A stretch of 64,000 nt of DNA from Acidobacteriota bacterium (GTDB lineage Bacteria > Acidobacteriota > Vicinamibacteria > Vicinamibacterales > UBA2999): assembly GCA_018000455.1 (NCBI GenBank), contig JAGNJW010000008.1:24294-88293 (forward strand), in the 5' to 3' direction. This document shows positions 1 through 45,402 of the stretch, one piece after another. The notes under the pieces were generated by a model. That model saw only the letters and a program-made list of their open reading frames with translations. It was not told the origin of the DNA and ran no database searches. A program made the position numbers and the translations under genes. Each line of letters begins with the position of its first letter. The stretch's first letter is position 1.

Positions 1-303
1 CTGATGAATGACGACCAGCGCGCCTCCATGGCTGGTCGTCACGGGGCTTTCATCGTGATAGCGCAGGGCCTCCCGCAGCCGGTCGGGATTCACTCCGAGC
101 GTACGTGGATCGCCGATGCGCCAGCCGCCGTCCAGCTCCGACGGGGGAAAGTAGCGAGCCTTCCCAGGCCGCGCCTGCTCGCTGTCGGTGCTGCCGGGCC
201 ACGGCAGGAGGCCCAACCTCACGGCGCCAACGCCGGCCATGCCGACGCCCGCCGCGGCAAGGATGCGTCTTCTGGTCAGCGTCAGTGAAGGGCGGGGTGT
301 CAT
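1..303 (-). CDS. Serine hydrolase (beta-lactamase-like), N-terminal part only; gene runs off the left edge
   Basis: Not in ORF track because there is no stop in the window. Reverse-strand ATG at 303..301 opens 101 sense codons down to position 1. Product reads MTPRPSLTLTRRRILAAAGVGMAG (twin-arginine-signal-like) ... SHGGALVVIHQ. Family assignment is from weak N-terminal resemblance only. Confidence 0.45.
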   Translation of the reverse strand, partial: MTPRPSLTLTRRRILAAAGVGMAGVGAVRLGLLPWPGSTDSEQARPGKARYFPPSELDGGWRIGDPRTLGVNPDRLREALRYHDESPVTTSHGGALVVIHQ

Positions 304-2409: not shown

Positions 2410-3315
2410 CTACTCCTTCGCTCGTCGAATCACCTGCGAGTCTGGATAGAACGCGCGCCAGGCGAACCAGTACGACGCAAACGCCGACACCTTCTGGCCG
2501 TCGACTTCAACGGTGGCGTTGGTGCGATCGCCGGTCGGCGTCACGGTCACCGGCAGGCCCTCGACGGTGGTCGTCAAGGTCGCGCCTGTTTGCAGGTCGT
2601 CCATCGGCACCGCGACAGCGCGGCCCTTGACCTGGAACCCCACGACCACCATCTTCGGCGGGTGGGTGCCGCTCATCCGCGTGCGTCCGGTGACGCCGAT
2701 GTTTGCGGAACCGTGGTACGTCTCGTAGCGATCCGTCGTGCCGGTCATGCCCGTGGCTCCCTGCTTGTCCAGTACGAGCGTCGCAGGGTGCAGGGTTCGC
2801 CATTCCTTCCACGACACCAGCGACGATTCGACGATGGTCAGGCGCTGCCCCTTGAGCGGCCCCTCGATGGCATCACCGAGTGCTTGGGCCCACCAGGAAT
2901 CGGTCTGCCGGTCGTACATCACGAGGTTGTCGCGCCACAACATGCCTGAGACGCCGAAGGTGAGTTCGCGGGCGCCGACCGTGCGGGCATACACGATGCC
3001 TGTGTAACACAGCGGTCACCAGGTGACGGCGATCGAGCGCGAGCCGATCGTGTCGTTGACGATCTCGTGGCCGTTCAAGAGCCACGTCGAGTAGGCCTTG
3101 GCCGCCTGTCCGTCCGCGACGCCGATGACCGGCTCGTCGTCACGCATGAAGGTCGCCTCGGCGGCAGTAACGAACACCGGCGCGTCGATGGCGGGAATGC
3201 CGTCTTTGGGCAGCCCGCGCACGACCGGATCGCCGTCGATGGACTTCTCTTCGATCCAGGTGCGGCCCTGGGCGGCGACGAGCGCCACTAAGACGAGTAC
3301 AGGAATCAGATTCAT
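2410..3315 (-). CDS. DUF3179-family protein interrupted by a single in-frame TGA (candidate selenocysteine codon, or nonsense pseudogene)
   Basis: ORFs 3016..3315 and 2410..2994 are in the same frame, separated only by TGA (3016..3018) and 7 sense codons. The joined product reads ...GSRSIAVTW-[TGA]-PLCYTGIVYARTVG...FGVSGMLWRDNLVMYDRQTDSWWAQ, which is one DUF3179-type protein. Confidence 0.6.
2986..3000 (-). other. Small mRNA hairpin 15 nt downstream of the in-frame UGA (SECIS-compatible position, not diagnostic)
   Basis: mRNA GGCAU-CGUGU-AUGCC has a 5-bp stem and 5-nt loop with G at loop position 2. A second hairpin CUGUG-UUA-CACAG lies directly after the UGA. Confidence 0.2.
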
Positions 3316-3325
3316 CGAGAGGACC

Positions 3326-4495
3326 TCAGCGCGTTGGTGAGTGCAGCGTCAGCTTCTGAATGCGCCAGTTGTTCATGTCGGCCACATACAGCGTGTCGTC
3401 GGTCGGACAGGCCAGCGAATGAATCCAGTTGAACTGCTTCACGTCCCGGCCAGAGATCCCCATCGTCCCGAGGATGCGGCCGTCGAGCGTCATCTTGTAG
3501 ATCCGCCCGGGTTCCGAATCCGACGTGTAGAGGTACTGCGTGGCGCCGCTGGTGATGCACAGCGTCCAGGGTTGCGTCTCGTCAGGAGGGCTGGCCGCCA
3601 GGTTGCCGAGCACCGGGTGGCGCGTCTTGTCGTAGACGGCGTTCAGGAAGATGAAGCGACGGAAGGTGCCGTCGGCGTCGAACACCTGAATGCGACGGTT
3701 GTTGCGGTCGGCGACGTAGACGTTGTTGCTGCGATCGACGGCGATGTTGTGCGGGGTATTGAACTGCCCAGGATTCTGGTCGGCGTGCGGCCCGCCGGAA
3801 CCTCTCGTGCCCCACGACGTCACCCACGCGCCGCGCTTGTCGTACTTCGCGACGCGCGCGTTGGTGTAGCCGTCGCTGATGTAGATGTTGTCGTCGGCAT
3901 CGAAAGCGATGTCGGTCGGACCGCGGAAGTAGCCGTCCTGCGCGGGCGGCGGCGGCGGGCCGCCGCGGCCATGGAACCACGACTCTTCCGGATCGTCAGG
4001 GCCCTCGGGGCGACGGCCGAGGTTCATCGTGACGTACCCTTCCGGGTTGAATCGCACGGCCGTATTGGTGCCCTTGTCGACCACCCAGAGGTTGTCGTGG
4101 CGATCGAAGCGAATGGCGTGGCCGTAGCCGAGGCCGTAGACCTTCTTGCCGATTTCGCGCACGAAGCGTCCCGTGGCCAGGTCGAACTCGAGCAGTTCGG
4201 TCGACGCGTTGCCGTAGAGCGGGCCCTGGGTCGCACTGCCCGGGTGATTCAACACCACCAGGCGGTTCTTCGAGTTGATGGCCACGCCGAGCACCTCGCC
4301 GAAGTTCATGTCGGCCGAGTAGGTCAGGAAGTCGGTCGCTGCATCAAACGGGATCTCCGGCACGACGACCGGCGAGGGAGCCGGCTGCGGCGATGGCGCG
4401 GCGGCGGGCTGGTCGGCCGTCACCCCCGGGTTGCGGAACAGGAACACGGCACAGACGAGCACTGCTGGAATCGCCATCGCCGACCATCGCTTCAT
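3326..4495 (-). CDS. NHL-repeat six-bladed beta-propeller protein (peptidylglycine-lyase-like), secreted
   Basis: ORF 3326..4495. Signal-like MKRWSAMAIPAVLVCAVFLF. Repeated NHL-type motifs such as YVADRNNRRIQVFD, YVADMNNWRIQKL and YISDGYTNARVAKYD. Confidence 0.8.
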   Translation of the reverse strand: MKRWSAMAIPAVLVCAVFLFRNPGVTADQPAAAPSPQPAPSPVVVPEIPFDAATDFLTYSADMNFGEVLGVAINSKNRLVVLNHPGSATQGPLYGNASTELLEFDLATGRFVREIGKKVYGLGYGHAIRFDRHDNLWVVDKGTNTAVRFNPEGYVTMNLGRRPEGPDDPEESWFHGRGGPPPPPAQDGYFRGPTDIAFDADDNIYISDGYTNARVAKYDKRGAWVTSWGTRGSGGPHADQNPGQFNTPHNIAVDRSNNVYVADRNNRRIQVFDADGTFRRFIFLNAVYDKTRHPVLGNLAASPPDETQPWTLCITSGATQYLYTSDSEPGRIYKMTLDGRILGTMGISGRDVKQFNWIHSLACPTDDTLYVADMNNWRIQKLTLHSPTR

Positions 4496-4532
4496 GAGAG
4501 CCTCCGAACGTCTGAGTTGAGCGGGCGGGCGG

Positions 4533-6347
4533 CTAGTTCACGCCGAAGGCGAGCAGCACGTTGCCCGGCCGCGCGCGGTAGTCGCCGGAGTTCACGTAGA
4601 GCATGCCGCCAACCACCACCGCCGCCGGGCCGTTGAGCGAGCCGCCCCGCGCCTTCACGCCGTTCACGGTGGGGAAGTCGCGGTTGGTATCGTAGTGCCA
4701 GAGCACCGACCCATCGCGGGTCGAGTAGGCGCGGATGCCGCCGTCGAAGGAACCAGACAACACGGCGCCTGGAATCACCGTGATCGCTGCCGACTGGGCG
4801 CCGTTGCAGACGCGCGCGGCGCCGCTGCACAAGAGCGGATCGGGCGGCGCCGCGAACCACACGCGCTCGCCCGTGCCGATCTTTACCGCGTGCAGGCCGC
4901 CCGGCTGCGGATGATTCTGATCGGCGACCGGCAGGTAGGCGTTGTCGGCGTCGGCGGCGATGCCCCACTCGATGCCCCCGAGCGTGCCGCCGAGGCCGGC
5001 GCGGTACTGCCAGAGCACCTTGCCGCCGTTGTCGGGGTCGAGGCCATAGGCCACGCCTGACTTCTGCCCCACGACGAGCATCTCGCGGCCGTCGGGTCGC
5101 TTGGCGATCACTGCCGAGGCGCCGAAGTCGTAGTCAGGCCCCGGTGTGTCGCCGCAGTTCACTTCGCCCGGTCGGCACCCGTAGAGATCTCCAGGCGCGA
5201 GCTGCTGCTGCCATCGCATCTTGCCTGTCTCGAGGTCGAAGGCCACGATGGCGTCGGTGCCCGGCTGCGACTCCTTGCCGCTGTAGGTGTTGCCCACCGC
5301 CGCGTAGATGACCGCTCGCTTCACGTCGATGGTTGGCGCCGACCAGATGGCGCCGCCCGAGGGTCCCCACGACTCGCCGCCATCAGGACGCCGGCCCATG
5401 AGCACCGGGGCCACCGGAATCGGATAGGCGCGCCAGATCGCGTGGCCGTCCGCGGTGTCGAGGGCGACGATCGCGCCGCGAAACGTGCAGCAGTTGTAGG
5501 TGGGGCTCTTGCCGACCTCTTCGTAGGAGGACGTGGGCACGTAGAGCCGGTCCTGATAGAGCAGCGGCGAGCCGGTGAGCCGCACGAGCGGATGGTCGTC
5601 GACCAGCACGCTCCAGATCAGTTGGCCGGTGGCCGCGTCGACGGCGTAGGCCCATCCCTTCTGATCGGAAAAATACGCATTGAACCTCGCAGCCGCGCCA
5701 GGACGGGGACCCACCGACACCGCGCCGCGCACGCCGCCACGCGCTTCGTAGATCCACACGACGCAGCCGGTCTTGGCATCGAGCGAGTAGACCGTGCCGT
5801 TCTGCGAGCCCACGAAGAGCCGTCCGCCAACGACGGTGGGCTGTGCCCAGGCTGCTGTGGCCTCCGGCAGCCCCAGCGCCCACTTCAGCGTCAGCTTCGG
5901 CAGTTGCGCCGCGGTGAGGCCGCCACGGCTGGCCGGCATGAAGTGCGTGTTCGCCAGATCGGCACTCCATCCGTTCCAGGCCGGTGCCGACGTCAGGCTC
6001 GTGAACGGTGCCGGGTTGGCGCAGCGGCCGATCGCCGGATCTGCTTTCGTCGCGACGCCCACCGCCCTGCCGGTGAGGTGCTCGGCCACTGCGCGCCGCT
6101 CGGCCCCGCTCATCGAGATCCCTTGATAGCGCATGGCGCCACCGGTCAGCGCCGCGATGATCGACTCGGGTGAGCGCGCCTTGAGCTGTTCCGTCGCCGG
6201 GGCGCGCGAGGCGGCCGCCCCGTCATGACACGAAGCGCAGCTGGTGCGGAAGATGGTGGCGCCGTCGGGCGCCTGGGCCCGTGCCGGGGCCGTGAGCATC
6301 AGGAATGTCCCCGCCGCGGCGGACGAGGTCAGCAACGAGCGGCGCAT
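4533..6347 (-). CDS. PQQ-repeat beta-propeller dehydrogenase with N-terminal c-type cytochrome domain (PVA-dehydrogenase-like architecture)
   Basis: Track ORF 4533..7529 is over-extended and antisense to the FGE gene. The internal ATG at 6347 gives MRRSLLTSSAAAGTFLMLTAPARAQ (signal), a heme motif CASCH, then PQQ-like propeller repeats. Confidence 0.85.
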   Translation of the reverse strand: MRRSLLTSSAAAGTFLMLTAPARAQAPDGATIFRTSCASCHDGAAASRAPATEQLKARSPESIIAALTGGAMRYQGISMSGAERRAVAEHLTGRAVGVATKADPAIGRCANPAPFTSLTSAPAWNGWSADLANTHFMPASRGGLTAAQLPKLTLKWALGLPEATAAWAQPTVVGGRLFVGSQNGTVYSLDAKTGCVVWIYEARGGVRGAVSVGPRPGAAARFNAYFSDQKGWAYAVDAATGQLIWSVLVDDHPLVRLTGSPLLYQDRLYVPTSSYEEVGKSPTYNCCTFRGAIVALDTADGHAIWRAYPIPVAPVLMGRRPDGGESWGPSGGAIWSAPTIDVKRAVIYAAVGNTYSGKESQPGTDAIVAFDLETGKMRWQQQLAPGDLYGCRPGEVNCGDTPGPDYDFGASAVIAKRPDGREMLVVGQKSGVAYGLDPDNGGKVLWQYRAGLGGTLGGIEWGIAADADNAYLPVADQNHPQPGGLHAVKIGTGERVWFAAPPDPLLCSGAARVCNGAQSAAITVIPGAVLSGSFDGGIRAYSTRDGSVLWHYDTNRDFPTVNGVKARGGSLNGPAAVVVGGMLYVNSGDYRARPGNVLLAFGVN

Positions 6348-6470: not shown

Positions 6471-7604
6471 ATGGCGAGGCTCTGTCTTCGAGCGCGCACG
6501 TGCATCAGCGCCGCGGTGCTGCTGCTGACCGCGGCATGCCGCCCCTCGCCCGAGGCGCCGGCGCCGAGCCCGTCGTTTACGCCCACCACGCTCCACGACA
6601 CGGCACCGCCGTCGCCTGTCCCCGCCGGGATGGTCTGGATTCCGGGTGGAGAGTTCTCGATGGGCAGTGACACCGTAGCCGAGGCCCTGTGCGACCTGCC
6701 TGGCATCACGTACGACGCGCAGCCGATCCATCGCGTGGCCGTGGATGGGTTCTGGATGGACGCCACCGAAGTCACCAACGCGCAGTACGCCGCGTTCGTC
6801 GCGGCCACCGGATACGTGACACTCGCCGAGCGTTCGCCGGATCCGGCCGAGTTCCCGGCCGCGCCGCCAGAGCTGCTGGTGCCGGGGTCGACGCTCTTCA
6901 CGCCCCCCGGCCGGCCCGTGGCACTCGACGACGCGCGGCAGTGGTGGCGCTGGGCGCCCGGCACCAACTGGCGTCACCCTGAAGGCCCCGGCAGCACGCT
7001 GGCCGGACGCGAGCACTATCCGGTGGTGCACGTGGCCTTTGCCGACGCCGTCGCGTATGCCTCGTGGCGCGCGGGGCGGCTGCCGACTGAGGCCGAGTGG
7101 GAGCTTGCGGCGCGCGCGGGCCAGAGCGGAAAGCTGTATGCCTGGGGCGACGAACTGACGCCCGACGACGTCCATCAGGCCAATATTCATCAGGGCAGAT
7201 TCCCGCTGGAGGACGATGGACTCGACGGCTTTGCCGGCCTGGCGCCGGTGGCGCGTTTCCCCGCCAACGCCTACGGCGTGCACGACATGGCCGGCAACGT
7301 GTGGGAGTGGGTAAGCGATTGGTATCGCCCCGACTACTACTCTCTGCTGGCCGCGACCGGTGAGGTTGCGGTGAATCCCCAGGGGCCGAACGATTCCTTC
7401 GACCCTTCGGAGCCAGGTCTTCGGAAGCGCGTGCAGCGCGGCGGATCGTTTCTCTGCACGGAGCAGTACTGCTCCCGCTACCTGGTGGGCACCAGGGGCA
7501 AGGGCGAGATCTCGACCGGCAGCAATCATGTGGGGTTCCGCACGGTCAAGACGGCAGGAAGCAGACAGCCAGGAGCATCAGATGGTGAGGAAACTCGTCG
7601 GTAA
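6471..7604 (+). CDS. Formylglycine-generating enzyme (SUMF1/FGE family), lipoprotein-like signal
   Basis: Motifs seen: GGEFSMGSD, WRHPEGPGS, HPVVHVAFADAVAYASW, LPTEAEWELAARAG, NVWEWVSDWY, RGGSFLC. The N-terminus ends in LLTAAC. Confidence 0.9.
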   Translation: MARLCLRARTCISAAVLLLTAACRPSPEAPAPSPSFTPTTLHDTAPPSPVPAGMVWIPGGEFSMGSDTVAEALCDLPGITYDAQPIHRVAVDGFWMDATEVTNAQYAAFVAATGYVTLAERSPDPAEFPAAPPELLVPGSTLFTPPGRPVALDDARQWWRWAPGTNWRHPEGPGSTLAGREHYPVVHVAFADAVAYASWRAGRLPTEAEWELAARAGQSGKLYAWGDELTPDDVHQANIHQGRFPLEDDGLDGFAGLAPVARFPANAYGVHDMAGNVWEWVSDWYRPDYYSLLAATGEVAVNPQGPNDSFDPSEPGLRKRVQRGGSFLCTEQYCSRYLVGTRGKGEISTGSNHVGFRTVKTAGSRQPGASDGEETRR

Positions 7605-17620: not shown

Positions 17621-18232
17621 CTACGCCGAGAGCGGGCGCTGAAAAAACGGCGCGAGCAGTCCCAACACCGTGGAGACGACGATCACCGAGAGGCCGGATA
17701 GCGCTGCCGAGTACCACGACATGGCGCCGAACGGCGAGTGTGGCAGTCCGAACGCCCAAGCCGTGTAGGCGACCGTCGCGGCGAACATCTCCCAGACCGG
17801 CCACGCCCCGAACGAGAGCGGCAGTTCCCTGCCCGCTGCCTTGACCTTGGCGGCAAAGAGCAGCCACACGACCACGGGCGTTATTGCGAAGAACGACCCG
17901 AACACGATCCAGTCCGTCACGGTGATCGTCGGCGTTTGCACCGTCGCCATGACCGCGACGTAGACGGTGAGGACTTCAGTGGGAATGTAGCCGAAGAGCA
18001 CATTCATCGCCGTGTCTACTGAGGTGGCGGCGCCCGGCGGCAGCGGCGAGGCAGCAGGCGCCGGCATTCCGGGCGCGCCGAGCGGCGCCGGTGCGTCGAG
18101 CGGCGCGGGTGCGGCCACCGGCGTCGTGCGGGCAGCCAGGGCGATCTCGTCGACCGTTGACGGCACGCGGTCGAGCGGTGCGAGGTCGGTCCGTCGCGCA
18201 GACGCCGCATTGGCGAGCGAGTTGAGGCTCAT
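17621..18232 (-). CDS. Hypothetical 4-TM membrane protein with Pro/Ala-rich N-terminal region
   Basis: ORF 17621..18232. AGGAG lies 8 nt upstream of the ATG. It is the last intact gene of the 24283->17621 operon. Confidence 0.6.
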   Translation of the reverse strand: MSLNSLANAASARRTDLAPLDRVPSTVDEIALAARTTPVAAPAPLDAPAPLGAPGMPAPAASPLPPGAATSVDTAMNVLFGYIPTEVLTVYVAVMATVQTPTITVTDWIVFGSFFAITPVVVWLLFAAKVKAAGRELPLSFGAWPVWEMFAATVAYTAWAFGLPHSPFGAMSWYSAALSGLSVIVVSTVLGLLAPFFQRPLSA

Positions 18233-18256
18233 GTCGAATCTCCTGTCCGCGGGGGA

Positions 18257-19828
18257 CTACGACTTCAGCTTGTCGAGCAGCGACGCCATGGCGTCGTCGA
18301 TCGAGGCGCTCGGCACGCCCAGCCGTTTGGCCAGGCGCATCGACACCCCGCGTGAGGCGCGCGTGGGCGTTGCCCGCGGTGCCTTGACGGCGGTCGATGG
18401 CGATGCGCCGGCGTCCTCGCCACCCGGCAGATTCCGGATCGCGTTGTACAGTCCTCGTTCCAGGTTCGTGAGCGCCGGGTCGTCGGCGATCTTCGCCTGC
18501 GCCTGCACCCGGCCTACCAATTCGTCGAACTTGGGGACCCGGCTGCGCTGCTTCTTCACCGCGGGCGCCGTCGGCCCGCCGTAGCGCCATACCAGCCACA
18601 CTTCAGATCCCCACAGGCGGTCGGCGATCGACGACGACAACGAGCCACGCGGCACGAGCGAGGGACGCGCGGCGGCCGCCGCCGATACGATCACCCAGCT
18701 GTTCAGCAACATCGGCGGCACGGCGAACGTCGCGCGTGACGCTCGCCCGAGCCAGAGCGAGAGCGCGGCCACGTCTGGATGTCCCGGCACCAGCGGCTCG
18801 ATGGCATCCACGATCGCGGCCACCAACTGTCGCGCGTCAGACGGTTCGGGCCGTCCGACCGATCGGGCGATCGAGGCACCGCGGACCAGCGTGTGCGCCA
18901 CGGCCATGGCGAACGACGGATTCGGCACTGCCGATGCCGACATCGCCTCCGCGTGTGCGGTGGCAATCGTGACGTGCGGACCCGCAATCCACGACTTCGC
19001 GAGCTCGGCGTAGCCACGCACGTCGCTGGTGACGACCTCGCCGGGCCTGGCCATGAGGATGGTGGCGTTGGCCAGGTCGGCACGCCAGAGCGGCCGCTTG
19101 AGTGTTCCGTGATTGCGCATGCCGAGCAGCACCTGCGTCTGCCAGCCGGGCGAAACCACCAGCGATTGTTCGAGGCCCCGCGCGTCCTGGTCCGACGATT
19201 CACCCAGAGCGACGCGAAGCCGATAGGAGCCGGGCGCCAGCGTCGCGACGTGCGTGACGGCGGTCGGGCTGGCGTTTGCGGTCGTCGAGACGACGGTCTG
19301 CAGGTCCACCACCAGGGCGCCGCCGGCATCGCACAGCGACAGGCCGAGGGCCGGGTGTGCGTCGGGTGCCTCAGGCGAACCGGCGAGCTCGAACATCACG
19401 CCCGATGCCATGGCTGGCGTGGGCGCCAGCGCGCGGGTCTGCGGCCTGGCGCCGCGCGCCGCAGCGTGCGTCACCTCCTCACCAGTCGGGGCCGCCAGCG
19501 GCGGTGGCGGTGGCGCCGCCATCGCGAGCGGCGGTACGACTTCGCTCTTCGACAGGCCGTGCTCGAACACGTCCGGGAGCGCCACGGTGACGTCCGCCGT
19601 GCCGGACACGACCGTCGTCATCGTGCGCTCGACATCGCCGCGCCGGAACTTCAGCTTGTAGATGCCGGCCGGTACCTCACGCGTCAACGTACCCACCGAG
19701 CGGCTGACGAGGCGGAACGTGTAGTCGATGAGAAACACTTCCGTGTCGGGCGGCGCCTTCACGATGAGACGGGTCGTGGGCCCTTCCGGGCTGGCGCCGC
19801 GCGGGCCGGTCGGATCAGATGTCGACAT
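18257..19828 (-). CDS. Hypothetical 523-aa protein: two PEGA-like beta-sandwich modules, a helical region and an HTH-like C-terminal tail
   Basis: ORF 18257..19828. GGAGGG lies upstream of the ATG, and the start overlaps the caspase-like gene by 14 nt. Modules: ...VPAGIYKLKFRRGD... and ...LAPGSYRLRVALGE.... Tail: SMRLAKRLGVPSASIDDAMASLL. Confidence 0.65.
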   Translation of the reverse strand: MSTSDPTGPRGASPEGPTTRLIVKAPPDTEVFLIDYTFRLVSRSVGTLTREVPAGIYKLKFRRGDVERTMTTVVSGTADVTVALPDVFEHGLSKSEVVPPLAMAAPPPPPLAAPTGEEVTHAAARGARPQTRALAPTPAMASGVMFELAGSPEAPDAHPALGLSLCDAGGALVVDLQTVVSTTANASPTAVTHVATLAPGSYRLRVALGESSDQDARGLEQSLVVSPGWQTQVLLGMRNHGTLKRPLWRADLANATILMARPGEVVTSDVRGYAELAKSWIAGPHVTIATAHAEAMSASAVPNPSFAMAVAHTLVRGASIARSVGRPEPSDARQLVAAIVDAIEPLVPGHPDVAALSLWLGRASRATFAVPPMLLNSWVIVSAAAAARPSLVPRGSLSSSIADRLWGSEVWLVWRYGGPTAPAVKKQRSRVPKFDELVGRVQAQAKIADDPALTNLERGLYNAIRNLPGGEDAGASPSTAVKAPRATPTRASRGVSMRLAKRLGVPSASIDDAMASLLDKLKS

Positions 19829-24744: not shown

Positions 24745-26412
24745 TCAGTCGCGCAGTCCGAAGGTAAAGAGCGCGTTGCCGGCGATGACCGTCACGTACT
24801 GCTTGCCCTCGACCATGTAGGTGACCGGGCCCATCACGATCTGGCCGCCGAGACTGGCCTTGAAGAGCAGGGCGCCGGTGCGGGCGTCGAGGGCCATGAA
24901 GTGGCCTTCGCGACCGCCGGTGAAGAGCAGGTCACTGGCCGTCGTGAGCATCCCAGCGTCGCTCACGTCGAACTGGCGCAGCTTCCACTTCGGCTGGCCG
25001 GTGTCAGGGTCCATGGCGACGACGGCGCCGTTGCCCACTTCGTCGGTCCAGTTGTTGATCGGGCCGCGGCGGCCGATGCCGATCGTTGGCGCGCCGGGCG
25101 CCGGCGTGACCACGCTGAAGCCGCCGCCGGTGAAGAGCTGGCCGGGCGTGTAGGTGGATTCCTCGGGACGGTAGATCGTGCCGTAGTTCTCCCACGCTGA
25201 GAAGTAGAAGAGGCCCGTGCGCGGACTGTAGGACGGCACATACCAATTGGTGCCACCCTGGTTGCCCGGATACGTGGGGGAGCCGGGCGGCTGCGGCGTC
25301 TGCTGCGGCCGGCCCACGGCGTCGAGACCGCTGGCCCAGTTCACCTTCACGAACGGCGTGCCGGCCAGGAACTCGCCGGTCACGCGGTCGAGCACGTAGA
25401 AGTAGCCGTTGCGATTGGCCCACAGCATCAGCTTGCGCGGCTGGCCCTTCCACATGCGATCGACGAGCACCGGCACCTGCACGGCATCGTAGTCGTAGGG
25501 ATCGTGCGGCGTGAACTGGAAGTGCCACCTGAGCGCGCCGGTGTCGGCATCGAGCGCGATCGCCGAGTCGGAGTAGAGGTTGTCGCCGGGCCGCTGCTTC
25601 GGGTTCCAGTCGGGTCCCGGATTGCCGATGCCCCAGTAGACGAGATTGAGCGCCGGGTCGTAGGAGCCGGTGACCCAGGCCGGTGCGCCGCCGGTCTTCC
25701 AGTCGTCGCCCTCCCAGGTGTCGTGGCCGGGTTCGCCGGGGCCGGGAATCGTGTAGAACTTCCAGACTTCCTTGCCGCTCCTGGCATCGTAGGCCGCGAC
25801 GTAGCCGCGGATGCCGTACTCGCCGCCGCCGACGCCCACGAGCACCTTGTCCTTGATGACGAGCGGCGCCATCGTGATCGAGTAGCCGGCCTTCACATCA
25901 CCCACGGCGACGTTCCAGCGTGCCTTGCCGCTGACGCGGTCGATGGCGACGAGCCGCGCATCGAGCGTGCCCATGAACACCAGATCGCCGAGGATGGCGA
26001 CGCCGCGGTTGTTGGCGCCGCAGCATACCTTGGCATCGGGCGAGGGCGTGTGGCGGTAGAGCCAGTAGAGCGATCCGGTCTTGGCATCCACGGCCATCAC
26101 GTCGTTGGGCCGCTGGGTGAGGTACATCATGCCGTCCACCACCAACGGATTCGACTGCCAGGCGCCGAACACCTGGTTCTGCACCACCCACTTCGATTCG
26201 AGCCGCGCGACGTTGGCCGGTGTGATCTGGTCGAGCGTGCTGTAGCGCTGACTCGTGTAGGTACCGCCGTAGGTGAGCCAGTTGTGCGGCTCACTCGCCG
26301 CTCGGAGCAGGCGATCGCTGGTCACCTGCGCATCGAGGGCGTAGGAGCCGGCCATGAGGGCCACGAGCAGCAGCGTGAATCCCACGCGCGGACGACCGTT
26401 GACGCGGCTCAT
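24745..26412 (-). CDS. PQQ-dependent alcohol dehydrogenase (methanol/ethanol family quinoprotein)
   Basis: Track ORF 24745..27048 is over-extended. The ATG at 26412 gives MSRVNGRPRVGFTLLLVALMAGSYALDAQ. Also seen: NWLTYGGTYTSQRYS, the vicinal Cys pair in DAKVCCGANNRG, and 8-bladed propeller repeats. Confidence 0.9.
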   Translation of the reverse strand: MSRVNGRPRVGFTLLLVALMAGSYALDAQVTSDRLLRAASEPHNWLTYGGTYTSQRYSTLDQITPANVARLESKWVVQNQVFGAWQSNPLVVDGMMYLTQRPNDVMAVDAKTGSLYWLYRHTPSPDAKVCCGANNRGVAILGDLVFMGTLDARLVAIDRVSGKARWNVAVGDVKAGYSITMAPLVIKDKVLVGVGGGEYGIRGYVAAYDARSGKEVWKFYTIPGPGEPGHDTWEGDDWKTGGAPAWVTGSYDPALNLVYWGIGNPGPDWNPKQRPGDNLYSDSAIALDADTGALRWHFQFTPHDPYDYDAVQVPVLVDRMWKGQPRKLMLWANRNGYFYVLDRVTGEFLAGTPFVKVNWASGLDAVGRPQQTPQPPGSPTYPGNQGGTNWYVPSYSPRTGLFYFSAWENYGTIYRPEESTYTPGQLFTGGGFSVVTPAPGAPTIGIGRRGPINNWTDEVGNGAVVAMDPDTGQPKWKLRQFDVSDAGMLTTASDLLFTGGREGHFMALDARTGALLFKASLGGQIVMGPVTYMVEGKQYVTVIAGNALFTFGLRD

Positions 26413-27179
26413 TGCACACCTCGCAGCGACAGGAGATAGGCGACCAGGTCGGCGACCTCGTCGGTCGAGAGCGTCTTGGCCACCGACGGCATCGGTGAGG
26501 TGGTGGCAGTGTTCATGGTCTTGATGTCGGCCTTGACGACGGTGGCGAGCTCGCCGGTGTCGGTGACGAGCTGCACCGAGAAGGTGTCTTCGTTCACCCG
26601 CCGCCCACGGAGGATCTTGCCGGCGGTCGTGACGATGGTGACCGGGCGGTTGATGGGCGGCATGGCGCGCGAGGGTTCGAGCAGCGCGCGCTGCAGGGCG
26701 GCCGGCGTGCGCAGGGCGCCGATGTCGCTCAAGTCGGGTGCGGTGAGCGGGCCGGCGCCGTGCACGCGGTGGCAGGTCGCGCAGGCGGCCTTGCCGGCAA
26801 AGAGCCCCTGTCCGCTCGCGATGTTGCCGACCTTGACGGCCGTGCCCTCGGGGTCGAAGCCGGCCCGGATCATGGCGATGATGCCGGTGACCTCGGCCGG
26901 CGCCAGGGAGAAGGCCGGCATCCCGGGGGGCACGCCCTTCGCGATGACCTGTGCCAGGTCGTCGTCGGTGACGGCGCGGCGGAAACGTCCGCGCCGCAGG
27001 TCCACCCCGGCCACCGTGTCGCCATTGGCGCCGTGACAGAGCTGGCACTGTGCGGCGTAGACACGCACGCCGGTGGTGATATCAGCGGAGCTGTAGGTGT
27101 GATCCTGGGCGGGGGCGGGGGCGGCTACCGCGAGCAGCAAGGTCAGGCAAAGTAGCGTCGGGCGCCGGAGTACGAGCAT
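26409..27179 (-). CDS. Dihaem c-type cytochrome (probable electron acceptor of the PQQ dehydrogenase)
   Basis: Internal ATG at 27179 gives MLVLRRPTLLCLTLLLAVAAPAPAQ. Two CxxCH motifs (CQLCH, CATCH). ATGA overlap with the dehydrogenase start. Confidence 0.85.
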   Translation of the reverse strand: MLVLRRPTLLCLTLLLAVAAPAPAQDHTYSSADITTGVRVYAAQCQLCHGANGDTVAGVDLRRGRFRRAVTDDDLAQVIAKGVPPGMPAFSLAPAEVTGIIAMIRAGFDPEGTAVKVGNIASGQGLFAGKAACATCHRVHGAGPLTAPDLSDIGALRTPAALQRALLEPSRAMPPINRPVTIVTTAGKILRGRRVNEDTFSVQLVTDTGELATVVKADIKTMNTATTSPMPSVAKTLSTDEVADLVAYLLSLRGVQ

Positions 27180-27252
27180 GGAGCGCACTTGTACCCGTTC
27201 GTCACCGGCCGTGCAACCCAATACCCACGGCTCACCCTGAATCCGTCGGATA

Positions 27253-29142
27253 ATGACCGCCATGCGCATGATGTTTCAGGTCGTCGTCTGTGCCGGGCTC
27301 GTCGCCGCGCTGGCGGCGCCGGCGGCCGCGCAGGCGCCGGTGGCCTACCGCGTGTCGTTTCCGACGCCCGAGCACCGCTGGATGCAGGTGGAGGTCACCT
27401 TTCGCGACGTGCCGGCCGGTCCGCTGCAGGTGCGCATGAGCCGTAGCTCGCCGGGCCGCTACGCCCTGCACGAGTTCGCCAAGAACGTGTTCGACGTGCA
27501 GGTGAAGGACGGCAAGGGCCGTTTGCTCGCGCCGCTGCGGCCGAACCTCCACCAGTGGACCGTGCCCGGCCACGACGGCACGGTGGTGGTCAGCTACCGC
27601 GTGTTCGGCGATCGCACCGACGGCACCTATCTCAGCGTGGACGCGACGCACGCACACCTGAACATGCCGGCCTCGCTCATGTGGGCGCGCGGGCTCGAGC
27701 AGCGCACGGCGCGCGTCGAGTTCGTGCCGCCGCCGGGCGCGACCTGGAACGTCGCCACGCAGCTCTTCCCCACGGGCAGCCCGCACGTCTTCACCGCGCC
27801 CAACCTGCAGTACCTGATGGACAGCCCGGCCGAAGTGGGCACCTTCGCCCTGCGGACCTTCGCCGTCGACGACGGTAAGGGCCCGCAGACGTTCCGCATC
27901 GCGCTGCACCACGACGGCAGCGATGCCGAGGCCGACGCCCTTGCCCGAGACGTCGAGAAGATCGTACGCGAGACGATGCCGATCTTCGGCGAGCTGCCGC
28001 GCTTCGACGGCGGCACCTACACGTTTCTTTCCGACTACCTGCCGTGGGCGAGCGGCGACGGCATGGAGCATCGCAACAGCACGGTGCTCTCGTCGCCGGG
28101 GGGCCTGCGCAGTCCCGGCCAGCGTGCCGGCATCATCGGCACCGTCGCCCACGAGTTCTTCCACGCCTGGAACATGGAACGCATCCGGTCGAAGGCGATC
28201 GAGCCCTTTGATTTCGAAGACGCCAACATGTCGGGCGAGCTGTGGTTCGGCGAAGGCTTCACGAGCTACTACGACGCCCTCATCACCCAGCGCGCCGGGC
28301 TGACCACGCTCGACGACATGCTGGGCGACTACGCGGGCCTCGTCAACGCCGTGACTCTGGCGCCGGGCCGCCACATCCGCACCGCCGAGCAGATGTCGCA
28401 ACTGGCGCCGTTTGTCGATGCCGCCGTGTCGATCGACAAGACGGCGTGGCCCAACACCTTCATCTCCTACTACACGTGGGGCGCCGCGCTCGGACTGGCC
28501 ATGGACCTGTCGCTGCGCGACATGACCAACGACAAGGTCACGCTCGACGACTACATGAAGCTGATGTGGACGGAGTACGGCGTGCCGGGCATGAAGGGCG
28601 CGCCCGGCGTCGTGGCCAAGACCTACACGATGGAAGACCTGCAGGGGCACCTCGCGCAGCTCTCCGGCAACGTCACGTTCGCGCGCGAGTTCTTCGCCAA
28701 GTTCGTGCAGGGGCACGAGGTGCCCGACTACGCGACGTTGCTCGGCAAGATGGGCCTGGTCGTGCGCAAGCGCGCGGCGGGGAAGTCGTGGCTCGGCAAT
28801 GCCGCCTTGCAGCCGGCAGCCGGCGGCCTGCGCGTGGGCCTGGTGCCGTTCGACTCGCCGCTCTACAAGGCCGGCGTGGCCGATGGCGATCAGCTCGTGG
28901 CCGTGGGTGGCGTGGCGGTGACGACGCCGCAGGCTGTGACCGACGTGCTCGCGAAACGCAGCCCGGGCACTTCGCTTCCCCTGCGCTTCGTGCGGCGCAG
29001 CGGCGGCGACCCCGTGACCGCCACGGTGACGCTCGAGGAAGACCCACGCATCGAGATCGTGACGGCCGAATCCACCAGGGCCGCTGTCGCGCCTGAGCAG
29101 AAGCAGCGGCGCACGGCCTGGCTGGCGTCGAAGACCCGATGA
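27253..29142 (+). CDS. M61 glycyl aminopeptidase with C-terminal PDZ domain (copy 1)
   Basis: Signal-like N-terminus. Zinc motif HEFFHAWN. The overall layout is paralogous to 37686..39497. Confidence 0.9.
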   Translation: MTAMRMMFQVVVCAGLVAALAAPAAAQAPVAYRVSFPTPEHRWMQVEVTFRDVPAGPLQVRMSRSSPGRYALHEFAKNVFDVQVKDGKGRLLAPLRPNLHQWTVPGHDGTVVVSYRVFGDRTDGTYLSVDATHAHLNMPASLMWARGLEQRTARVEFVPPPGATWNVATQLFPTGSPHVFTAPNLQYLMDSPAEVGTFALRTFAVDDGKGPQTFRIALHHDGSDAEADALARDVEKIVRETMPIFGELPRFDGGTYTFLSDYLPWASGDGMEHRNSTVLSSPGGLRSPGQRAGIIGTVAHEFFHAWNMERIRSKAIEPFDFEDANMSGELWFGEGFTSYYDALITQRAGLTTLDDMLGDYAGLVNAVTLAPGRHIRTAEQMSQLAPFVDAAVSIDKTAWPNTFISYYTWGAALGLAMDLSLRDMTNDKVTLDDYMKLMWTEYGVPGMKGAPGVVAKTYTMEDLQGHLAQLSGNVTFAREFFAKFVQGHEVPDYATLLGKMGLVVRKRAAGKSWLGNAALQPAAGGLRVGLVPFDSPLYKAGVADGDQLVAVGGVAVTTPQAVTDVLAKRSPGTSLPLRFVRRSGGDPVTATVTLEEDPRIEIVTAESTRAAVAPEQKQRRTAWLASKTR

Positions 29143-31938: not shown

Positions 31939-34440
31939 ATGACCGACGCCGAACGCTGGGTCGCGGTGAAAGCGCTGGTCGGGGACGCCCTCGACCTCGC
32001 GCCCGAGGCGCGCGCGGCGTGGCTCGCCGCCCAGGACGTGTCCGAGGACCTGCGCGAGGAGGCCGCCGCGCTGCTCGATGCCGACGCCCGCGCGGGACCG
32101 TTCCTGGTCCGGGCCGCGATCTTCGAGACGGCCGCCGCCGGTGCCGTCCACGATGCCACCCGCGCGGCCGCGGCGCCGGCGATCGGGCCAGGTCAGCGTC
32201 TGGGGGCCTATCGCGTCGAACGCGTCATCGGCGAGGGTGGGATGGGCACGGTCTACCTCGCCACGCGGGCCGACGACGCCTTCGACAAACAGGTCGCGAT
32301 CAAGCTCGTGCGGGCGGGGCTGGCCGGTCCAGGGCTCGTCGAGCGCCTGCGCGAGGAACGGCGCGTGCTGGCGTCCCTCGATCACCCCAACATCGCCCGG
32401 CTGCTCGATGGCGGCGCCACCGACGACGGCGTGCCCTACGTGGTGATGGAGTACGTCGACGGTCTGCCCGTCGACGCCTACTGCGAGGCACGCGGCACGA
32501 CGGTCGCCGGGCGGGTCGCGCTCGTGCGGCACGTCTGCGACGCGGTGCACGACGCGCATCGCAATCTGGTCGTGCACCGCGACATCAAGCCCGGCAACAT
32601 CCTGGTCACCGCCGACGGCACGCCGAAGCTGCTCGACTTCGGCATCGCCAAGGTGCTCGGAGGGGTGGCAGCCTCACGCAGCCAGACCGTGGGCGCGATG
32701 ACCCCCGACAGCGCCAGTCCTGAACAGGTCACCGGCGGCGCCATCACGGTGGGCACCGACGTCTACGGCTTGGGCCTGCTGCTCTACCGGCTGCTCGCCG
32801 GCCGCGGGCCGTTCGACACGGCCGGCAGCGCCGCGGCGCTGCTCCGGGCGGTGTGCGAGGACGATCCGGTGCCGCCCAGCCGGCTCGCTCCCGGCCTGTC
32901 GATTCCGGCGGATCTCGATCGCATCGTGCTCAAGGCGCTGGCCAAACGTCCGCAGGATCGCTATGACACGGCCGCCGCGCTCTCCGACGACCTCGGTCGC
33001 CTGCTCGACCAACGGCCCGTCAGGGCCACGCCCGATTCGCTCGCCTACCGCAGCCGTCGCTTCGTGGCACGGCACCGGTTGGGCACCGCGGTTGCCGCCA
33101 CGGCCATCATCGTGCTCCTGGCCGGCGTCGTCGCCACGGCCTGGCAAGCAGGTATCGCGCGACGCGAACGAGCCCGTGCCGAGCAGCGCTTCGACGACCT
33201 GCGCCGCCTCGCCAACACGCTCATCTTCCGCATCCACGACGCGGTGAGCGAGCTGCCGGGGTCGACGCCCGTGCGTCAGACCATCGTCGAGAGCGCGGTC
33301 GTCTATCTCGACACGCTGGCACGCGAGGCGACCGACGACCTGCCTCTGCAGCGCGAGTTGGCGGCCGCCTACGAACGCCTGGCCTCGGTGCAGGGCCGAA
33401 GCGGCGCGGCCAACCTCGGCGACGTTGCCGGCGCCCGCGTCAACCTCGACAAGGCGCTCGCGTTGAGGCGCGCCATCGCCTCGCCGCCGCGGGCAACGCC
33501 CGTCGACACGGTCGCCCTCGCCACGACCCTCGAACGCCTGGCCAACCTCCCGGCGACTCCCGAGACGCGATCGGCCCTCGCGCTCGAGGGTCTGGCCCTG
33601 CTCGACGCCCTGCCCGCCGCCGATGCCGCCACGCTCGGGGCCAGAGCCGCCCGCGCCGCCCTCGTGTGGAACGACGCCGTGAGCCGCGCCGATCGCAAGG
33701 ACTACGCCGCCGCCGCGGAGCGCTACCAGCAGGCCGCCAGCCTGTTCGAGCAGTTGATGCTCGCCGACCCGGCCGGCGCCGTCGCGCGTGGCCGCAGCCT
33801 GGCGATCGCCTACCGCAACATCGGCTCCGTCCGCTGGATGCTGGACGATCGGCCGGCCGCCATCGAGGCCTACCGCCAGGCCCTGGCCCTCGACGAATCG
33901 CGGCTGGCCACGCAGCCCGACAACACGACCTGGCGGCTGGATCTGTCCTACAGCGTGTCATCCATCGCCTTTGCCGAGCTCGAGACCGGCGCGACGGCGG
34001 CGGCGGTCGCACACTACGAGCGAGCGCTCGATCTGCGCCAACAGGCTCTGACCGCTGATCCGCAAAACGACCAGGCCCAGGACGGCGTGATGCGGGCGCA
34101 GCGGGCCCTGGCCCGCGCGCTCGGGCTGCAGGGGCAGGAGCGCCGGGCGCTCGACGCGTCGGCCGCGGCAGTGCGGATGGCGGAAGTGCGGCTCCAATCA
34201 CGGCCGGACGCCGGCCGGGCCGCGGCCCTCGTGGAGTCGCTGCTCGCCGAGGTGCGGCTGCGCCGGCACTTCGCCGCGCGCACGCCCGCGCACGTCCAGG
34301 CCGCCTGTCTCGCGTTCGATCGCATCGAGGTCGTGCGGCGGCAGGCGGTGGCAGCCGGCGCCACGCGTGCGCCCGGCCCCGGCGAGGCGGAACTGGCGGG
34401 CGAACGCGGGTCGTGTCCGGCCCCGCCGCGCGGGCGCTGA
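31939..34440 (+). CDS. Ser/Thr protein kinase with a TM segment and a long TPR-like C-terminal region
   Basis: Kinase motifs: GEGGMGTVYLA, VAIKLV, HRDIKPGNIL, DFGIAK. A TM segment at about AVAATAIIVLLAGVVATAW is followed by repeated helical TPR-like units. Confidence 0.9.
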   Translation: MTDAERWVAVKALVGDALDLAPEARAAWLAAQDVSEDLREEAAALLDADARAGPFLVRAAIFETAAAGAVHDATRAAAAPAIGPGQRLGAYRVERVIGEGGMGTVYLATRADDAFDKQVAIKLVRAGLAGPGLVERLREERRVLASLDHPNIARLLDGGATDDGVPYVVMEYVDGLPVDAYCEARGTTVAGRVALVRHVCDAVHDAHRNLVVHRDIKPGNILVTADGTPKLLDFGIAKVLGGVAASRSQTVGAMTPDSASPEQVTGGAITVGTDVYGLGLLLYRLLAGRGPFDTAGSAAALLRAVCEDDPVPPSRLAPGLSIPADLDRIVLKALAKRPQDRYDTAAALSDDLGRLLDQRPVRATPDSLAYRSRRFVARHRLGTAVAATAIIVLLAGVVATAWQAGIARRERARAEQRFDDLRRLANTLIFRIHDAVSELPGSTPVRQTIVESAVVYLDTLAREATDDLPLQRELAAAYERLASVQGRSGAANLGDVAGARVNLDKALALRRAIASPPRATPVDTVALATTLERLANLPATPETRSALALEGLALLDALPAADAATLGARAARAALVWNDAVSRADRKDYAAAAERYQQAASLFEQLMLADPAGAVARGRSLAIAYRNIGSVRWMLDDRPAAIEAYRQALALDESRLATQPDNTTWRLDLSYSVSSIAFAELETGATAAAVAHYERALDLRQQALTADPQNDQAQDGVMRAQRALARALGLQGQERRALDASAAAVRMAEVRLQSRPDAGRAAALVESLLAEVRLRRHFAARTPAHVQAACLAFDRIEVVRRQAVAAGATRAPGPGEAELAGERGSCPAPPRGR

Positions 34441-45096: not shown

Positions 45097-45402
45097 AACC
45101 CCTCTCAGGCGCCGCCCCCCAGGCAGGCGAGGCGCCCGCCTGGCCAGTTGCGCGCACCACATCCGCCGGCGATTGTCTTCACATCGCCGCACTCGATCGG
45201 GTCGTCATCGCCGCCGAAATTTTGACTCACGGGGTTCAGGGCCCCAAGTTGAGCCAAATTATCGACTCGGCGACGCTGAACCGACGACGGCCACCCCGTT
45301 TCCTGCCGAAGAATTCCTCTGTAAACACTGTGGATAGTGGTCTTTGCGGGCACAGCGCAAGGCGTCCCGTGGGCTGGCACCGTCGTTGCCACTGGATGGG
45401 GC

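Follow-up and report, generated by a model that had tools for sequence, protein, structure and literature searches.

A TGA in a DUF3179 gene of an uncultured wastewater bacterium is very probably a selenocysteine codon

A gene for a DUF3179 protein on the minus strand (2410..3315) of the 64-kb window, by which we mean the whole stretch of DNA analysed here, is interrupted by an in-frame TGA at 3018..3016. This TGA very probably encodes selenocysteine, and the gene belongs to the known DUF3179 selenoprotein family. A sequence-only reading of this DNA had leaned towards selenocysteine in a UxxC motif, and that leaning is backed here by the distribution of Cys and TGA among homologues, by a covarying hairpin downstream of the codon and by the fixation of TGA in the species. 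Judged by what sequence can test, the locus shows every feature by which a bacterial selenoprotein gene is recognized. The phenomenon is already known and would not surprise a selenoprotein specialist.

The gene, assigned from its sequence, its translation and Pfam PF11376, starts with an ATG at 3315, ends with a TAG at 2412..2410 and comprises 301 codons, made up of 99 amino acids, Sec100 and a further 201 amino acids. The TGA, which appears on the plus strand as 'tca', is the sole in-frame stop within these codons, and its translated surroundings read ...SIAVTW-TGA-PLCYTGIVYAR.... When the stop is bridged, the Pfam DUF3179 (PF11376) match spans it, extending over residues 37–267 with an E value of 4e-72 and scoring 243.5 bits where the cut-off is 27. 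Alignment of 105 full-length homologues reveals conservation of at least 90% at T98, C100, P101, L102 and C103, and the TGA is aligned with C100 of the near-invariant VTW-C-P-L-C, so that it replaces the first Cys of C-P-L-C; the earlier claim that the stop stands at the first Cys of a conserved VT(Y/W)-C-P-L-C motif is thus borne out. On this alignment, and on the TGA found in relatives, codon 100 (UGA, 3016..3018) would be read as selenocysteine, with the UGU codon at 3007..3009 supplying its partner Cys103. The resulting U100-P-L-C103 has Sec as the first residue of a conserved CxxC, the mark of the DUF3179 selenoprotein subfamily. Many homologues contain an additional segment, about 40 residues long, which the window protein lacks.

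At the N terminus, the stretch MNLIPVLVLVALVAAQ (3268..3315, minus strand) was judged by eye to be a putative signal peptide, and hydrophobic N termini that resemble it and end in AQ are also present in orthologues. Because this N terminus is signal-peptide-like, the DUF3179 protein is probably exported.

Purifying selection acts on the sequence past the TGA as it does on the part before. In comparisons of the window gene with nine relatives, dN/dS is 0.12–0.43 past the TGA and 0.13–0.41 before it, and the 201 codons that follow are open with a GC3 of 0.84; the frame is, in short, both open and constrained beyond the UGA. Elsewhere in the window, TGA is the stop used most often and serves as the ordinary terminator of many Pfam-confirmed genes, so the genetic code is not one in which TGA has been reassigned. 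A scan of the window for stops flanked on both sides by 70 open, high-GC3 codons returned the TGA site and one other, at 34198..34200, which was rejected as an interrupted gene because it lies antisense to a kinase gene. A same-frame pair of open reading frames at 17621..19828, split by a TAG, proved to be two adjacent genes, the second with an ATG nine codons past the stop. The window's other decayed genes, of which the earlier reading spoke, find no support in the stop-codon scan, which yielded no further interrupted gene.

The TGA is also found in other genomes. Our starting set was the best 120 protein matches to the window protein, seven of which are C-terminal fragments that start just past the motif, at (M/V)YAR, a trace of gene callers halting at an in-frame TGA. 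At three loci retrieved via the C-terminal protein alone, L001 (GCA_964350785.1), L005 (a Vicinamibacteraceae metagenome-assembled genome (MAG)) and L006 (a JGI metagenome), the DNA was examined and has TGA at the same codon; all three share the same layout, in which an N-terminal open reading frame of 98–99 codons is followed by the TGA and then by P-L-C-Y-T-G and the remaining domain. Aligned with the window protein, their products share about 50% identity with it (52.8% by blastp for L005/L099). Six independent assemblies of the same species, from several wastewater runs, all have TGA and differ from the window at this locus by only two bases, both synonymous; TGA is fixed in the species.

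A wider search with the pattern V-T-W-TGA-P-L-C-[Y/F]-T over species-representative genomes returned at least 120 loci, which, among the matches listed, come from at least eight phyla; the carriers include Chloroflexota, Acidobacteriota (Vicinamibacterales), Zixibacteria, Methylomirabilota, Tectomicrobia, Marinimicrobia, Nitrospinaceae, Ignavibacteria and Binatia, among others. Every one of these listed loci (at least 120) encodes a DUF3179 homologue that is 28–76% identical to the window protein; the alignment mostly crosses the stop, and most of the uncut loci have long open frames on both sides of it. A single Chloroflexota chromosome carries four TGA-form DUF3179 genes, and the nearest relatives among the listed matches are Vicinamibacterales MAGs, of which one (L034) is 76% identical over 153 residues. 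As the pattern fixed the V-T-W-TGA-P-L-C-[YF]-T codons, it accounts in part for how conserved those columns are; hairpin columns 25–41, from the Gly codon onwards, lie outside the pattern, and columns 23 and 24 overlap the last Thr codon (23 fixed, 24 free). No synteny with relatives was found besides the DUF3179 gene itself, and it is from the nearest DUF3179 homologues alone that the window would be assigned to a related acidobacterium. A comparison of Cys with TGA across orthologues, which the sequence-only reading had proposed as a check, reveals both forms at exactly this codon: the conserved Cys forms a Sec/Cys pair, and TGA-form homologues occur in other organisms.

These observations bear on whether the gene is instead a pseudogene, either through a new TGC/TGT-to-TGA nonsense mutation or through recent loss of the Sec machinery that left a Sec codon stranded, with a product that ends at 99 residues. 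Such decay would fit with the lack of Sec machinery genes in the window and with a genome of 68.7% G+C, in which long open frames persist for some time by chance. It has to be set against the same TGA in at least 120 genomes, among them the closest relatives (at 76%, around 53% and around 50% identity), its fixation in six same-species assemblies that differ from the window only synonymously, and the 201 intact codons beyond it, with their GC3 of 0.84 and dN/dS of 0.12–0.43. The stop is not private and constraint downstream of it is not relaxed, as would be expected of a nonsense pseudogene. We consider a pseudogene very improbable, a very recent loss of Sec decoding being the likelier way to one, and de novo nonsense mutation, the fresh TGC/TGT-to-TGA change that had been offered as the alternative, is excluded in practice by a TGA common to relatives, to at least 120 genomes and to six assemblies of the species.

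The gene has likewise been treated as two genes. Automatic gene callers, in every assembly seen, annotate a 99-residue N-terminal protein that ends at the TGA and, in the window, a 194-residue protein that starts from a GTG at 2994 (Val107). If these were two genuine polypeptides, P-L-C-Y-T-G would stay untranslated, although it is conserved as protein in independently found orthologues, and the junction would fall inside a continuous Pfam domain and inside a fold predicted as one unit. The called GTG start at 2994 moreover lies inside the hairpin described below and is not accompanied by a signal peptide, and a split at TGA is a known artefact of selenoprotein genes (PMC13188914). Two separate products are barely credible here, and the single Sec-containing protein is the reading that we carry forward.

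Past the UGA, the message contains a SECIS-type hairpin (2984..3002, minus strand), recognized through covariation, a Cys-form control, folding energies and the bSECIS criteria. In the family, the helix is 7 bp long, pairing 3002..2996 with 2990..2984 around the loop CGUGU at 2995..2991; the window copy pairs at six of the seven positions, the exception being A3001 opposite C2985. Its core, GGCAU/AUGCC at 3000..2986, begins 15 nt past the UGA, and the GGCAU-CGUGU-AUGCC element that had been pointed out at this distance is indeed present, conserved and covarying.

Covariation was assessed in 119 distinct TGA-form sequences, aligned without gaps from 3 bases before the Trp codon to 45 past the TGA. 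Across this set, 93.5% of cells in the 7-bp helix (columns 23–29 with 35–41) are paired. Four of the seven pairs have changes on both sides, amounting to 72 compensatory cells compared with 15.9 ± 3.2 in shuffles, and the covariation score of 0.29 falls to 0.03–0.06 under a one- to three-column shift of the 3′ partners. Compensation crosses codon boundaries: the third bases of the Gly and Thr codons covary with the first bases of the Ala/Ser and Arg codons, such that Gly GGC/GGA goes with Ala GCC/Ser UCC, and Thr ACG/ACU with Arg CGN/AGA. The Tyr codon within the stem is TAT in 106 of the 112 Tyr codons of the TGA forms, high-GC genomes included, and where TAC occurs its partner is mostly G. 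The single mismatch of the window hairpin beyond the family consensus would be in keeping with a pseudogene, whereas the synonymous TAT and the stem bases that the window retains argue against one.

As a control, we assembled 21 Cys forms, namely 18 metagenome genes with the same protein motif and the three closest Cys-form homologues; the Cys-pattern scan of metagenome contigs had yielded 19 loci, a sample that suffices as a control and not for the relative frequencies of Sec and Cys. All seven pairs are present in 82 of the 119 TGA forms compared with none of the 21 Cys forms. The Tyr codon of the Cys forms is TAC in 8 and TAT in 7, and the mean local fold energy is −4.8 kcal/mol in the 18 metagenome Cys forms versus −9.1 kcal/mol in the TGA forms. 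Cys forms thus do not fully maintain the hairpin. Compensatory changes support it, and it is a property of the TGA forms specifically. Covariation among orthologues, also raised in advance as a check, is accordingly answered by this second of the two hairpins noted after the UGA, which covaries in TGA forms and is incomplete in Cys forms.

The bSECIS model describes a loop of 3–9 nt, a stem of 4–16 bp and a G within the first two loop positions, with 16–37 nt between the UGA and the loop and a minimum free energy of −7.5 kcal/mol or lower (PMC13188914). The window element has a 5-nt loop, CGUGU, whose second base is G and whose third is U and which lies 20 nt past the UGA, and an upper stem of 5 bp plus a C-G pair across the A·C mismatch, weaker than most in the family. 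Its core hairpin alone is predicted at −5.2 kcal/mol, and the minimum-energy fold from the UGA to +42 at −14.3 to −16 kcal/mol. All of the bSECIS values are therefore matched, with the window copy reaching −7.5 kcal/mol only when a lower helix is included; in the family, 108 of the 119 members are at or below this energy.

This possible lower helix, from fold prediction, would pair UGACCG at 3018..3013 with its 3′ half CGGUCG at 2976..2981 (minus strand), and this pairing is the reason that the fold from the UGA to +42 comes to −14.3 kcal/mol. By eye, it is present in close acidobacterial relatives too. As a general feature of the family it was rejected, with 60.6% of cells paired across the set, and we treat it as lineage-specific. 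The first hairpin, CUGUG-UUA-CACAG (3000..3012, minus strand), exists in the window and has one base in common with the second (3012..3000 and 3000..2986). It was rejected as a conserved element, as it does not covary and 18 of the 119 sequences can form its middle pair. Of the suggestion that two hairpins after the UGA might serve as a SECIS, then, both hairpins are real and the second is conserved, but the first is not. The accompanying caution that such hairpins are not diagnostic by themselves was sound: 91 nt of the single window sequence folds no better than shuffles (z = 0.37), and the question therefore needed comparative evidence. A search of the whole window against Rfam at gathering thresholds gave no match, so no curated SECIS family applies.

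We propose that the mRNA hairpin 15–33 nt past the UGA, with the loop CGUGU and its G in second position, acts as a SECIS element. By the established bacterial pathway, its loop would recruit SelB-GTP together with Sec-tRNA(Sec) to the ribosome stalled at the UGA; Sec would then be inserted and the 201 further codons translated. The predicted product is one protein of 301 residues, probably exported, with U100-P-L-C103 in place of C-P-L-C. We infer SelB-dependent decoding in this organism by analogy with that pathway.

ARAGORN detected no tRNA genes in the 64-kb window, and no selA, selB, selD or tRNA-Sec gene was found within it or in the roughly 7.6 kb beyond the window start. A Pfam scan of 30 further open reading frames of the window returned no SelA, SelB or SelD, its sole translational GTPase being RF3. 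One Tectomicrobia MAG has a tRNA-Sec gene (ARAGORN; Rfam RF01852, 75 bits) at a distance of 3.3 kb from its TGA-form DUF3179 gene, which offers indirect support for Sec machinery in carriers of the TGA form. Selenoproteins have been reported from some Acidobacteria (PMC1794560).

Read-through of the TGA might also insert a residue other than Sec, with a selC*-type tRNA-Cys or an acidobacterial allo-tRNA opal suppressor delivering Cys or Ser and the hairpin serving a SelB-like factor. Both kinds of tRNA have been described: selC* tRNA-Cys mimics tRNA-Sec and may be an opal suppressor, and allo-tRNAs of Acidobacteria may act as nonsense suppressors (PMC5389517); it is in acidobacterial MAGs, moreover, that the closest relatives of the gene are found. 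Yet the window contains neither a selC* nor an allo-tRNA gene, selC* comes from Firmicutes, Thermodesulfobacteria, Nitrospirae and Proteobacteria rather than Acidobacteria (PMC5389517), the tRNA-Sec beside the Tectomicrobia TGA-form gene is canonical, and the literature treats DUF3179 as a true selenoprotein. In that literature, we found no experimental evidence of selenium incorporation. Insertion of Cys or Ser, which would leave a listed 'selenoprotein' without selenium in this organism, is in our estimation extremely unlikely, and selenocysteine remains our reading of the codon.

From sequence and context, the protein most plausibly acts in the cell envelope, where it would provide a site for selenol/thiol redox chemistry or for metal binding. 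At six other DUF3179 loci, three of the Sec form and three of the Cys form, every gene adjoins one or more of the following: ECF sigma/anti-sigma pairs, CMD (AhpD-like) genes or thioredoxin/AhpC/DsbD_N genes. Such neighbours fit a thiol/selenol redox role in the envelope. The co-directional neighbours in the window are different and encode an NHL-repeat protein, an S9 peptidase and a PQQ dehydrogenase that carries a cytochrome c domain. For the structure, we took the AlphaFold model of a Cys homologue (P0002) that is 59–61% identical to the window protein; this model is confident (pLDDT 92.4) and mostly beta. A Foldseek search of the model against the PDB returned nothing below E = 0.1, and the modelled fold gives no indication of function. 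Weak partial matches of the model to Rieske-type domains were seen and are not relied on. Searches with the DUF3179 protein of PDB sequences and of NCBIfam gave no match.

For annotation, the gene calls in all public assemblies examined consist of two fragments, one of 99 residues and one of about 194–233 residues (99 and 194 in the window), where the correct product would be a single chain of some 300 residues that has Sec as residue 100. Among species-representative genomes, at least 120 are touched by this mis-call. For automatic annotation of DUF3179 selenoproteins, a covariance model could be seeded from the hairpin alignment of the family, together with its covariation and its Cys-form control. 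DUF3179 is also without a solved structural relative. Having a U/CxxC motif, probably being exported and recurrently neighbouring thioredoxin, AhpD and ECF-sigma genes, it is a reasonable target for study as an envelope redox protein.

DUF3179 (PF11376) is tabled as a prokaryotic selenoprotein family with the motif UxxC/T in two reviews (PMC9312934, 2022; PMC13188914, 2026), both of which cite work on Olavius symbionts (Zhang & Gladyshev 2007, NAR 35:4952). The window gene is a member of this already known selenoprotein family, sharing with it the Pfam family, Sec at the first CxxC position (U-P-L-C) and a stem-loop past the UGA, and differing in nothing of kind, other than that this copy comes from an uncultured wastewater bacterium. 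Among DUF3179 homologues, the window copy stands apart in the absent segment of about 40 residues and in neighbours unlike the usual ones.

Like the bSECIS consensus and the E. coli fdhF SECIS, the window element is a hairpin within the coding sequence, just past the UGA, whose small apical loop carries a G and then a U near its 5′ side, and its UGA-to-loop distance of 20 nt is inside the 16–37 nt of the consensus. The predicted lower helix of the window includes the UGA itself, and so does the lower helix of the fdhF SECIS. The window element differs from that of fdhF in that its sequence is unrelated, no bulged U was identified and the upper stem consists of 5 bp plus one pair. Compared with thiol-oxidoreductase-like selenoproteins, the DUF3179 Cys-homologue model differs in being mostly beta and without a significant PDB match. 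The redox-type U-x-x-C motif is shared with these UxxC/CxxU selenoproteins (thioredoxin-like, DsbA-like, AhpD/CMD-like and Prx-like), and DUF3179 loci of both Sec and Cys form often lie beside thioredoxin/AhpC, DsbD_N, CMD and ECF sigma/anti-sigma genes.

In every public gene call that we saw (the window gene, 2410..3315 on the minus strand, and loci L001–L012 fetched from other assemblies), the DUF3179 gene is split at the in-frame TGA into one ORF of 98–99 amino acids and a second of 194–233 amino acids. This two-ORF split is a systematic annotation artefact, and the same mis-split probably affects the at least 120 genomes recovered by scanning species representatives for V-T-W-TGA-P-L-C-[Y/F]-T. 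A scan of the window for stops flanked on both sides by open, high-GC3 codons flagged, besides the DUF3179 TGA, only one further stop, at 34198..34200 on the minus strand; it is antisense to a Ser/Thr kinase gene (31939..34440), and we rejected it as an interrupted gene since it looks like a shadow frame. Two coding-like ORFs at 17621..19828 on the minus strand share one frame across a TAG (18257..18259), and an ATG nine codons past that TAG suggests two adjacent genes rather than one broken gene; neither ORF has a Pfam match. Elsewhere in the window, an ORF at 45337..46527 matches the collagen triple-helix repeat family (Pfam PF01391, E = 2e-17), against a high-GC bacterial background; its coding status is uncertain, as the high-GC3 list does not include it.

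The closest homologue carrying Cys at the TGA position, P0002 (L152, 3001..3975), shares the peptide TGIVYAR with the window protein, and its gene retains six of the seven base pairs of the SECIS-type hairpin despite the Cys form, the broken pair lying at the Tyr codon (TAC in place of TAT). A fairly recent Sec/Cys switch in this clade would fit. TGA-form genes also occur as paralogues, with up to four in single Chloroflexota genomes (L019, L064 and L098 on contig OZ244845.1; L023 and L029 on CBDFJV010000007.1). L098 comprises two such genes in tandem, and in a Vicinamibacterales locus (L030) another DUF3179-like stretch follows the first by about 1.2 kb.

In a Candidatus Tectomicrobia MAG (L092), the TGA-form DUF3179 gene at 3416..4549 has a tRNA-Sec gene (2..98; anticodon tca; 75 bits to Rfam RF01852) 3.3 kb upstream. 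An FGE-sulfatase-domain gene sits between the two, and the window also has one near its DUF3179 gene, at 6471..7604. The window further contains two separate PQQ-dependent dehydrogenase and cytochrome c sets (4533..6347 and 24745..27269), of which one is fused, with the NHL and DUF3179 genes directly downstream of it, and the other has its cytochrome c as a separate, di-haem-like gene.

Around both Sec forms (L001, L005 and L006) and Cys forms (L152, L153 and L154), DUF3179 genes are recurrently adjoined by ECF sigma factor/zf-HC2 anti-sigma pairs, CMD (AhpD-like) genes and AhpC-TSA/thioredoxin/DsbD_N genes. This recurrence tentatively suggests a redox-stress module of the envelope. The window copy has none of these neighbours.

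Within the protein, an HEIVND motif lies 12–17 residues ahead of the U/CPLC motif, and its residues H83, E84, N87 and D88 are fully or almost fully conserved. The AlphaFold model of P0002 is mostly β and confident (pLDDT 92.4, pTM 0.89). It has no significant match in the PDB, where its best partial matches are Rieske-type domains (probability 0.5–0.6, TM-score of around 0.5 on the target).
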